64,000 nucleotides of DNA, from contig CBDANZ010000005.1 of the NCBI GenBank assembly GCA_965197865.1, positions 631,237 through 695,236 on the forward strand, in the 5' to 3' direction. The notes below the pieces were generated by a model that made no database searches, was not told the DNA's origin, and saw nothing but the letters and a program-made list of their open reading frames with translations. The position numbers and the translations under genes are program-made. This document shows positions 3,234 to 6,043 of the stretch, in pieces; the first letter of the stretch is position 1, and every line of letters begins with the position of its first letter. This DNA is from Vicinamibacterales bacterium (GTDB lineage: Bacteria > Acidobacteriota > Vicinamibacteria > Vicinamibacterales > CAVVIG01).

Positions 3234-4121
3234 CTAGAGCACGATCTTGTTGAGCGGGTACTCGACGATCCCCTGGACGCGCGCGATCTTCAGGCGCGGA
3301 ATCAGATCGCGTACCGTGCGCTCTTCGATGATCGTGTTCACGGCCACCCATTCCTCGTCGCTGAGGGCCGAAATCGTCGGGCGCTGGAGCGCGGGCAGGA
3401 GCGACAGGACGCCGGCCAGATCCGCGCGCCGGACGTTCAGCATCAACCCCACGCGTCCCTGCGCCTCGATGGCCGCCTTGAGCAGGAGCGCGACGCCATC
3501 GAGCTTCGTCCGTTTCCAGGTATTTCCGAGCGCAGTCCGGTTCACGATGAGCTGCGTGCTCGATTCCATCACCGTATCGAGGCTCTGCAGGCGGTTCGCG
3601 CGCAGCGTCGAACCGGTTTCCGTCGCCTCCACAATCGCGTCGGCTAGGACCGGCGGCTTTACCTCCGTGGAGCCCCACGAGAACTCGACGTTGACCTTCA
3701 CCTTCTTCCTCTCGAAGTACCGCCGAGTGACCCGCACGAGCTCGGTGGCGATCGTCTTGCCTTCGAGGTCGGCCGCCGACCTGATCGATGAATCCTCTGG
3801 AGCGGCCAGCACCCACCGAACCGTGCCGAAGCTCTGCTTCGCGTACACTAGGTCGGCGATAGGTTCGACGACGCCGATCGTGCCGTCGCCGAGCTCGTGC
3901 TCGAGGATCCAGTCTTGACCGGTCAGGCCGGCGTCGAGCACGCCGTCCGACACGTGGCGCGCCATCTCCTGGGCACGAATGAGCATGCACTCGATCTCGG
4001 GATCGTCGATGGTCGGAAAATACGACCGCGAGCTCACGTGGATGTTGAACCCCGCGCGCGCGAAGAGCTGAATCGTCGCGTCCTGCAGGGAACCTTTCGG
4101 TATGCCGAGCTTGAGTTTCAT
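3234..4121 (-). CDS. hisG: ATP phosphoribosyltransferase, long form with C-terminal regulatory domain
   Basis: [40 protein letters not shown]-terminal PTIS...VEYP domain. Confidence 0.96.
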
Positions 4122-4131
4122 GACAAGAGCC

Positions 4132-4470
4132 CTACCGTGTCTTCCGTGGTAAACCGTCGTTTGGCAGCGCACGATAGAAGCACGAACGCTCGCCCGTATG
4201 ACACACTATTCCGTCACCCAGCCGTTTCACCTTCACGAGCACCGAATCATCGTCGCAATCGATGAGCATCTCGACCACCTGAAGGCGGTTCCCCGACGTC
4301 TCGCCCTTGGTCCACAGCTTGTGGCGCGTCCGGCTGAAAAATGTGGCGAAGCCAGTCCGCTTCGTCAGCTCGAGCGCTTCTTCTGTCATGAAACCGACCA
4401 TCAACACCTCGGCGCTTTCGGCGTCCTGAATGACGGCCGGAATCAACCCCTCGAGTTTCGAGAAGTCCAT
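4132..4470 (-). CDS. hisI: Phosphoribosyl-AMP cyclohydrolase (HisI only, no HisE domain)
   Basis: [30 protein letters not shown]; start MDFSK at 4470, just after the attenuator. Confidence 0.95.
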
Positions 4471-4486
4471 GAAAATCACCTGAAAC

Positions 4487-4522
4487 AAAAAAACCCGCCG
4501 CGTTGATGAACGGGGCGGGTTT
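4487..4522 (-). terminator. Intrinsic terminator (his attenuator terminator)
   Basis: Minus strand AAACCCGCC-c-CGTT-catc-AACG-c-GGCGGGTTT running into a 7-T tract; lies just upstream of the hisI start. Confidence 0.85.
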
Positions 4523-4561
4523 GCCGTCTTGCCGAAGGTTACCGGTCGATCTTACATCACC

Positions 4562-4630
4562 CTACATCACGCGCAACCCCGCCCCGTTGGGGCTGAAATG
4601 ACGGTGCGCATGATGGCCGCAAGCAAACAT
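4562..4630 (-). CDS. hisL: His operon leader peptide MFACGHHAHRHFSPNGAGLRVM
   Basis: 22-codon ORF with 4 His codons (positions 6, 7, 9, 11), upstream of the terminator; contains a segment complementary to the terminator 5' arm. Confidence 0.85.
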   Translation of the reverse strand: MFACGHHAHRHFSPNGAGLRVM

Positions 4631-4672
4631 GACAGCGTTGAGCCTACCCGTACCGGCTCGCCCCTGTCAATT

Positions 4673-5122
4673 TCACACCGGGGACCTGGCTCCCCGGGTC
4701 TTGCGCGTCATCTCTTTCGCAATCATCACTTCGGTCGATTTGATGATCGCGAGCGCCTCGTCGCCGCGGCGGAGTTTGAGTTCGCTCACGGCGTCCTTCG
4801 TAATGATCGCCGTCAGCGACTGATCGCCGACCCGCAGCCTGATCTGGGCGAGCAGCCCGTCGATGCGCACTTCTTCCACGAACCCGCGGAGCTGGTTCCG
4901 GCCGCTCAGCGACACAATCACGCCACGCGGCGTTCGCTTCCGTTTCGGCGTCCCGGCTACGCCGCGCCGGGCCAGCAGTCGATCGAGCTCCGTTTCGGCG
5001 ATCCGGTGGTGACCGCCTGGAGTCTGCGTCGTACGGACACGGCCCTGGTAGATCCACTGCTTGAGCGTGGAGTACCCGACGCCGAGGCGCACGGCCGCGT
5101 CCCGTACCGTGAGATTTACCAT
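4673..5122 (-). CDS. Molybdate-responsive regulator: excisionase/MerR-like HTH plus TOBE (Mop) domain
   Basis: LTVRDAAVRLGVGYSTLKQWI...TPGGHHRI HTH; SGRNQLRG, AIIKSTEVMI Mop motif; divergent from modABC. Confidence 0.88.
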   Translation of the reverse strand: MVNLTVRDAAVRLGVGYSTLKQWIYQGRVRTTQTPGGHHRIAETELDRLLARRGVAGTPKRKRTPRGVIVSLSGRNQLRGFVEEVRIDGLLAQIRLRVGDQSLTAIITKDAVSELKLRRGDEALAIIKSTEVMIAKEMTRKTRGARSPV

Positions 5123-5154: not shown

Positions 5155-5177
5155 AATTATATTAAATAGGATATACG
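5155..5177. promoter_or_regulatory. ModE-box-like AT-rich operator between the regulator and modA
   Basis: TATAT-taaatag-GATAT-ACG matches the TATAT-N7-TAYAT spacing of the ModE box with 1 mismatch; adjacent inverted repeat GAGTCG-N11-CGACTC at 5131-5153. Confidence 0.55.
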
Positions 5178-5179
5178 TT

Positions 5180-6043
5180 GTGAAGCAGGCTTTGCTCATC
5201 ACAGTAATTGCGATGGCGGCGCTTCTACCTGTCGGGCCCGGATGTCGCCCCAGGCAGGATCCCGCTGCGGTATCGATCGCCGCAGCCGCCGACCTGCGGT
5301 ACGGGCTCGACGAGCTCGTAGGCGAGTTCAGGACCGAGCACCCGGAAGTCAATATCTCGGTCACGTACGGATCGTCGGGGAATTTCTATGCCCAGCTCCT
5401 GCGCGGCGCTCCGTTCGACCTGTTTCTGTCGGCCGACGTCGCATATCCTCGCCAGTTGGCCGACCGCGGTCTCATCGTCCCGGAGTCCGAATTCAGCTAT
5501 GCCGAAGGTCGAATCGTCGTCTGGACGCTGGCGTCGTCGTCGCCGTTCAGCGTCGAGGCGCTCGGACTCCAAGCTTTGGCGGACCCCTCCGTGACGCGCA
5601 TCGCGATCGCGAACCCGGAGCATGCCCCGTACGGCCGGGCAGCAGAGGCCGCCATACGGAAGGCGGGCCTGCTCGACCTTGTCAGGCCGAAGCTGGTGTT
5701 CGGCGAGAACGTTTCGCAGACGCTGCAGTTCGTGCAGAGCGGCTCGGCTGAGGTTGGGATCGTGGCGCTCTCGCTGGCGCTTGCGCCGCGGGTGGCAGCA
5801 GAGGGCCGCTATTGGCTCGTTCCCTCCGATCTGCACCCGCGAATTGAGCAAGGGGGAGCCATCATGCGCTCGGCCAAGAATCTAGAAGTCGCGCGGGCAT
5901 TTCGCGCCTTCCTGCTCAACCCAGAAGGGCGGGCGCTGCTCCAACGATACGGGTTTTCGACGCCCAACCTCGAGTTTCGGGCGCCGGAGGTCGGGGTCCG
6001 AACGCCCGACCTCACCCCCGGGCCTGCTGCGACGGGACCGTGA
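5180..6043 (+). CDS. modA: Molybdate ABC transporter substrate-binding protein (lipoprotein-like N-terminus)
   Basis: IAAAADL, YGSSGNFYAQ, APFDLFLSAD, IANPEHAPYG, GENVSQ; GTG start at 5180 inferred. Confidence 0.93.
   Translation: MKQALLITVIAMAALLPVGPGCRPRQDPAAVSIAAAADLRYGLDELVGEFRTEHPEVNISVTYGSSGNFYAQLLRGAPFDLFLSADVAYPRQLADRGLIVPESEFSYAEGRIVVWTLASSSPFSVEALGLQALADPSVTRIAIANPEHAPYGRAAEAAIRKAGLLDLVRPKLVFGENVSQTLQFVQSGSAEVGIVALSLALAPRVAAEGRYWLVPSDLHPRIEQGGAIMRSAKNLEVARAFRAFLLNPEGRALLQRYGFSTPNLEFRAPEVGVRTPDLTPGPAATGP

Follow-up and report, generated by a model that had tools for sequence, protein, structure and literature searches.

The histidine operon hisIGDCBH in the window, that is, the whole 64,000-nucleotide stretch of Vicinamibacterales DNA analyzed here, is preceded by an element that is, with high probability, a ribosome-mediated leader-peptide transcription attenuator. 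On the minus strand, a promoter, a 22-codon open reading frame (ORF), an intrinsic terminator with a U7 tail and the genes hisI-hisG-hisD-hisC-hisB-hisH follow one another, and the leader has the full four-segment attenuator layout with the helices 1:2, 2:3 and 3:4. A preliminary description of this DNA had proposed a histidine attenuator at positions 4487–4630; these coordinates are correct as far as they go, but the full element is larger, as the promoter carries it to position 4670.

All six genes of the operon gave strong NCBIfam matches. The first controlled gene, hisI (4132..4470, minus strand), which encodes phosphoribosyl-AMP cyclohydrolase, matched NF000768 with 138 bits, over the curated cut-off, and is followed by hisG (3234..4121, minus strand; long-form ATP phosphoribosyltransferase, TIGR00070 and TIGR03455) and then by hisD, hisC, hisB and hisH (TIGR00069, TIGR01141, NF002111 and TIGR01855, respectively), which extend on the same strand down to position 2. 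The ATG of hisI at 4470 is located 16 nt past the U run, and the Shine-Dalgarno (SD) sequence of this gene, AGGTGA (4476..4481, minus strand), can be read from the sequence 3′ of the terminator. In approximately 20 relatives (e.g. loci L009, L007, L011, L013, L016 and L044), the hisI ATG is only 4–6 nt past the terminator U tract, which leaves no room for an SD sequence except in the G-rich 3′ arm of the terminator; in those loci, the terminator hairpin might also gate the translation of hisI.

The leader ORF was read directly at 4562..4630 (minus strand; ATG 4630–4628, TAG 4564–4562), where it comprises 22 codons plus TAG and encodes MFACGHHAHRHFSPNGAGLRVM, exactly the 22-residue leader with four His codons that had been claimed. 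The regulatory block CAT CAT GCG CAC CGT CAT, also read from the sequence (4598..4615, minus strand), places His at codons 6, 7, 9 and 11 (CAT 4615–4613, CAT 4612–4610, CAC 4606–4604 and CAT 4600–4598), 17 to 12 codons before the stop codon; this is the zone in which a masked ribosome permits the antiterminator to form, as described below. The GC-rich hairpin with a 7-U tail reported upstream of hisI was likewise found. It spans 4522–4491, ends in seven U (4493–4487) and folds in isolation at –19.3 kcal/mol, with CCCGCC (4519–4514) paired to GGCGGG (4499–4494), a C × C mismatch, CGUU (4512–4509) paired to AACG (4504–4501), and the loop CAUC. Owing to the internal C × C mismatch and the longer loop, this hairpin escaped a simple terminator scan.

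The four segments, all on the minus strand, were delimited as follows. Segment 1 (CAUCAUGCGCACC, 4603..4615) is the 5′ strand of the 1:2 anti-antiterminator helix, as indicated by the minimum free energy (MFE) fold, duplex energy and covariation. Segment 2 (4565..4588; fold, covariation and duplex energy) has two partners, with 4588–4573 pairing with segment 3 and the overlapping stretch 4578–4565 pairing with segment 1. Segment 3 (GCAAACCCGCCCCGUU, 4509..4524; sequence, covariation and duplex energy) is common to the antiterminator and the 5′ arm of the terminator, and segment 4 (4487..4504; sequence, fold, covariation and energy) consists of the terminator 3′ arm AACGCGGCGGG and the U7 tail. 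In the antiterminator, AACGGGGCGGGGTTGC (4588–4573) can pair at 15 of its 16 positions with GCAAACCCGCCCCGTT (4524–4509), which holds the 5′ arm of the terminator, and the pairing previously noted between these two stretches is thus confirmed with its single mismatch; the 2:3 and 3:4 helices are mutually exclusive. The duplex energies were –23.1 kcal/mol for 1:2, –31.8 kcal/mol for 2:3 and –20.3 kcal/mol for 3:4. When the leader was shuffled 1000 times, the energy of its duplex with segment 3 averaged –18.3 kcal/mol (sd 3.0), and none of the 1000 shuffles was as good as the actual sequence. The preliminary description had contained the 2:3 and 3:4 helices but had missed the 1:2 helix, which was found in the MFE fold of 4640–4471 (z = –2.06). 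There, the His-codon block (4615–4603) pairs with GGUUGCGCGUGAUG (4578–4565). This stretch shares positions with the 5′ antiterminator strand and stops 1 nt short of the TAG codon, so that segment 2 and the stop codon abut. Because the 1:2 helix joins the His codons to the 3′ end of the ORF, the arrangement is the complete classical four-segment one.

The gene upstream of the leader (4673–5122, minus strand, stop codon 4675–4673) encodes a 149-residue protein with an excisionase/MerR-type helix-turn-helix (HTH) and a Mop/TOBE molybdate-binding domain, and has no relation to histidine. Since the hairpin lies at least 150 nt downstream of this gene on the same strand, it could be read as a mere terminator of the HTH/Mop gene, the rest of the layout being due to chance. 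However, this gene is separated from the hairpin by a conserved promoter and an ORF, the layout is also seen in relatives whose upstream DNA is not the same, and the absence of an equally good antiterminator among the 1000 shuffles speaks against chance, such that we assign this reading a practically negligible probability. As separate observations, the HTH-Mop/TOBE gene follows TTCACA-17-TATAAT at 5156–5184 (minus strand), which is the best sigma-70-like promoter in the region; the product of the gene may be a small molybdate-responsive regulator; and several relatives (L006, L007 and L022) likewise have this gene ahead of their his leader.

Conservation of the leader was analyzed in hisI/hisG loci from 60 related genomes and 80 species-representative genomes, which yielded 101 distinct upstream regions of Vicinamibacterales whose hisI is 61–85% identical to that of the window; leaders were located by a frame-by-His-density search. 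The same layout, namely a His-rich orthologous ORF of 20–31 codons, an intrinsic terminator and hisI, was observed in 95 of the 101 loci. These 95 leaders contain 3–12 His residues (median 6), with six His in 34 and seven His in 26 leaders, and MFARHHHVHHHSSPARGAELHVL, MTLASHRHHHHHHHHHHHTVAGRRSCG and MVLLHHAHHHHHGHAGRPVGLRTQRN are examples of their peptides. The His content of the leaders was 27.5%, compared with 2.3% in long ORFs of the window genome. Loss of the His codons from orthologous leaders had been named in advance as an observation that would count against the idea; the idea survived this comparison, and the layout found in 95 loci supports the proposal of classical attenuation. By contrast, the remark that the His codons are dispersed rather than tandem applies to the window copy, and not to the lineage, in which runs such as HHHVHHH or H6–H11 are usual. 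With four His codons and a single tandem pair, the window copy represents the low end of the family (four or fewer His in 3/95).

We measured covariation on a MAFFT alignment of the 95 sequences (A1) that was unfitted to any structure. In A1, 78.7% of the cells were paired for the combination of the 1:2 helix and the terminator, versus 37–49% when the partners were slid, and the corresponding values for the antiterminator were 71.6% versus 28–49%. The covariation scores, to which shared descent may add, were 0.164 for 1:2 plus terminator (0.123 for shuffled alignments) and 0.138 for the antiterminator (0.107), with 0 of 500 shuffles reaching the observed score in either case. Both alternative structures therefore covary in the related upstream regions. 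The terminator pairs were paired in 90.4% of cases over the 95 sequences, with compensatory changes, and the inner six pairs of 1:2 in 79.1%, with changes on both sides at all six; for example, GCGC stands opposite GCGC in the window, and CGUGCA opposite UGCACG in locus L003. In the antiterminator, 35 sequences have C-G and 21 have U-A at the column pair 126/225 of A1.

Outside the His block, the leader peptide is not conserved; the conserved nucleotides are those that pair. The block GYGAKYTAG (A1 columns 136–144; 4565–4572 in the window) lies where segment 2 meets the stop codon and is read in two frames among relatives, using TGA as the stop codon in 18 (with tails such as ...RRSCA) and TAG in 4 (such as ...ELHAI); a ribosome translating in either of two frames out of three would stop within it. 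This two-frame reading indicates that the RNA, and not the tail of the peptide, is conserved. These features bear on the possibility that the ORF encodes a functional His-rich micropeptide, e.g. a metal binder, and that the hairpin is an ordinary, partly leaky terminator between transcription units. Peptides rich in His can bind Ni or Zn, and the ORF is conserved; however, a peptide that is unconserved apart from its His block, an RNA block at its 3′ end that is read in two frames, nucleotides whose conservation follows pairing, and a location that is always directly upstream of hisI or hisG render a micropeptide extremely unlikely.

The promoter of the leader consists of a –35 box TTGACA (4665..4670, minus strand), read from the sequence, and, after a spacer of 18 nt, a –10 box TAGGCT (4641..4646, minus strand), identified from the sequence and its relatives, with the leader ATG 10 nt further on. 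A TTG-type –35 box followed at 16–19 nt by a TAnnnT –10 box precedes the leader ORF in 87 of the 95 relatives, 52 of which carry the exact TTGACA. The spacing between –10 box and start codon was 9 nt in 44 relatives, 10 nt in 21, 8 nt in 9 and 11 nt in 7, such that 81/95 possess an in-frame ATG or GTG at a fixed 8–11 nt from the –10 box. No SD sequence was found for the leader ORF of the window, and an SD-like 4-mer was present upstream of 9/95 leaders, compared with 41/95 hisI genes. Transcription usually starts 6–8 nt past the –10 box. Given the observed spacing, a start at this usual distance would leave a 5′ UTR of approximately 0–4 nt and render the leader mRNA near-leaderless. Because an SD sequence is absent and the 5′ UTR would be a few nucleotides at most, translation of the leader ORF would rest on a leaderless-type initiation. 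The preliminary description was right about the ORF itself but had overlooked that it starts only approximately 9–10 nt past a –10 box without an SD sequence.

The lack of an SD sequence also lends some weight to a different explanation, in which the terminator/antiterminator switch exists but responds to a trans-acting RNA-binding protein or, in a T-box-like manner, to uncharged tRNA-His, the ORF being incidental. A pair of competing helices does not by itself reveal its trigger. In a comparison of 4300–4800 of the window with Rfam 15 (E up to 10), only chance, terminator-driven matches were obtained, and in 20 related loci no family reached its gathering score; neither His_leader (RF00514) nor the T-box (RF00230) was matched in either search, and the element is thus neither a member of RF00514 nor a T-box. 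Trp_leader, at 13.6 bits against a gathering score of 41, was discarded as a chance match dominated by the terminator. Besides the lack of a T-box or any other family, the start codon at a fixed distance from the –10 box, His codons that are always in frame with it and vary in number by whole codons, and a stop codon within or beside segment 2 across relatives are all difficult to reconcile with an incidental ORF. We accordingly regard a trans-acting effector as very unlikely and favor leader-peptide attenuation, in which the ORF itself is the sensor.

We simulated the effect of ribosome position by masking a footprint that reached from –15 to +12 nt relative to the A-site codon, with the remainder left to fold. 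In the window, the free RNA adopted the form with 1:2 and the terminator. With the A-site on any of the four His codons, 0 terminator pairs and 12 antiterminator pairs were formed, and with the A-site on the stop codon, the terminator formed. Thus, for the full-length RNA of the window, the antiterminator appears only with a ribosome masked where the His codons lie. Full-length equilibrium folding gave a clean switch in the window, but in only 48 of the 95 relatives because the complete terminator is very stable; this outcome in approximately half of the relatives means that the model needs kinetic, co-transcriptional control. Attenuation in E. coli likewise relies on co-transcriptional kinetics.

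The folding of transcripts truncated ahead of the terminator 3′ arm is a better proxy than full-length equilibrium. In such transcripts, the leader captured segment 3 in 60–74% of the 95 sequences when the A-site was 11 or more codons before the stop codon, in 40% at –10, in 24% at –9, and in no more than 8% from –8 to the stop codon. The His codons are distributed correspondingly: 97% of all 619 are positioned no closer to the stop codon than –9, most of them between –20 and –10. Taken together, the codon positions and the folding place the regulatory codons exactly where a stalled ribosome frees the antiterminator. In the cut transcript of the window, the antiterminator also forms without a ribosome, and the state without translation is therefore ambiguous.

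These results suggest the following mechanism. Transcription would start a few nucleotides before the leader AUG. When His-tRNA is plentiful, a ribosome would read through the four His codons to the UAG directly after segment 2 and cover that segment, so that 3:4 would pair and RNA polymerase would terminate at U7, before hisI. If charged His-tRNA runs short, the ribosome would instead stall on the His codons, that is, on segment 1; segment 2 would then be free to pair with segment 3 at 15 of 16 positions, no terminator would form, and the operon would be transcribed. With no translation at all, 1:2 and 3:4 could form together and the transcript would terminate. If the transcript is indeed essentially leaderless, RNA polymerase and the first ribosome would have to become coupled through leaderless-type initiation at its extreme 5′ end.

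We further surveyed the distribution of the element with a covariance model built from A1 (R1). The model detected a single copy in the window genome and strong matches in 34 of 37 other sampled genomes of the same order, with true copies located upstream of hisI or hisG. Among the weaker matches, true His leaders adjoining hisI/hisG were found in other Acidobacteriota families (f45, f58, f93, f36 and f40), and MQTLRHHGHHHHHGNPMPADCHGLN, MLALSFSRHHHHHHGTGMPRRDRC and MWNGEHHHHHHGPTGRGGGVR are examples from outside the order. Weak matches in f48, f38, f37, f22, f56 and others covered the terminator only, had no his gene nearby, and were discarded. Seven loci (L060, L066, L076, L094, L095, L097 and L102) came from MAG records titled Bifidobacteriaceae, cyanobacterium, Cyanobacteriota or Acidimicrobiia; their hisG is 75–80% identical to that of the Vicinamibacterales window and they have the same leader, and the taxonomic labels of these records are probably wrong. 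Whether the leaders together constitute an ancient family of His attenuators across Acidobacteriota, independent of the proteobacterial hisL and with the sensor ORF on an essentially leaderless transcript, is in our estimation an evenly balanced question.

A whole-genome scan for further leader-peptide attenuators (trp, leu, ilv, thr and phe types) found none besides that of his, and the generality of classical attenuation in this organism can therefore not be claimed. In genome G000, only approximately 155 terminator-like hairpins with a T run were counted in 3.1 Mb on both strands; intrinsic terminators thus seem rare in this genome, and the strong terminator of the his leader seems to stand out. 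Outside the window, on contig C4 of the same genome (517440–517720, plus strand), a prephenate-dehydratase-like gene (MRIAYQGESGAF...) has a near-leaderless upstream layout, in which TTGACA-N18-TGTAAT is followed 8 nt on by the ATG of a 33-codon ORF, MLLLSTFLPGRDDTCKAAVSFVRVVVRGATPTG, and then by a strong terminator (GGGGCCATC...GATGGCCCC plus T4). This layout matches that of the his leader, but the 33-codon ORF is not Phe-rich.

The mechanism itself is textbook, and the element apparently represents an uncatalogued family of a well-known kind of switch. His leader attenuators have been described in γ-proteobacteria, some Firmicutes and Actinobacteria (PMC9413887, PMC2965389, PMC4833913). The searchable literature yielded no account of an acidobacterial His attenuator, although an earlier mention is possible, e.g. 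in comparative-genomics surveys of attenuation. The present results assign a probable function to a conserved element that had no annotation, in a major soil phylum that has been little studied, and a new RNA-family entry could be started from the alignment of 95 sequences and the model built on it. In addition, the near-leaderless sensor ORF would offer a natural case for the study of transcription–translation coupling without an SD sequence.

Compared with the enterobacterial hisL (RF00514), the element shares the short His-rich ORF, the four segments with the 1:2 helix, the 2:3 antiterminator and the 3:4 terminator with its U tract, the regulatory codons in segment 1, a stop codon whose position lets a terminating ribosome cover segment 2, and a location directly upstream of a his biosynthetic operon. 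However, no sequence or covariance-model similarity to hisL exists. The window copy has four dispersed or paired His and the relatives have 3–12, in contrast to seven consecutive ones in E. coli; hisI-hisG are the first genes of the controlled operon; and the ORF lacks an SD sequence, its start codon lying approximately 9–10 nt past the –10 box. The His leader-peptide attenuators predicted in Firmicutes (Bacillus cereus group, Peptostreptococcaceae and Erysipelotrichales; PMC9413887, PMC2965389) are similar in that lineage-specific leader peptides are combined with terminator and antiterminator hairpins and were predicted by comparative genomics alone, but they belong to a different phylum, their sequences are unrelated, and their first gene is hisZ or hisS.

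With respect to the position of the sensor ORF, the closest parallels are the leaderless regulatory short ORFs of Actinobacteria, namely the polycysteine ORFs of mycobacteria (bioRxiv 10.1101/834739) and the leader peptides of Corynebacterium (PMC3896937, PMC4046766). The mycobacterial Cys ORFs involve a different phylum and a different amino acid, whereas the read-out of the his leader is a canonical intrinsic terminator, and relative to these actinobacterial ORFs the leaderless start proposed here is predicted from promoter spacing only. Nevertheless, the two systems are alike in that the sensor ORF lacks an SD sequence and opens, or in the his leader is predicted to open, at the transcript 5′ end or close beside it, and in that the codons of one amino acid report, or in the his leader would report, the supply of that amino acid.
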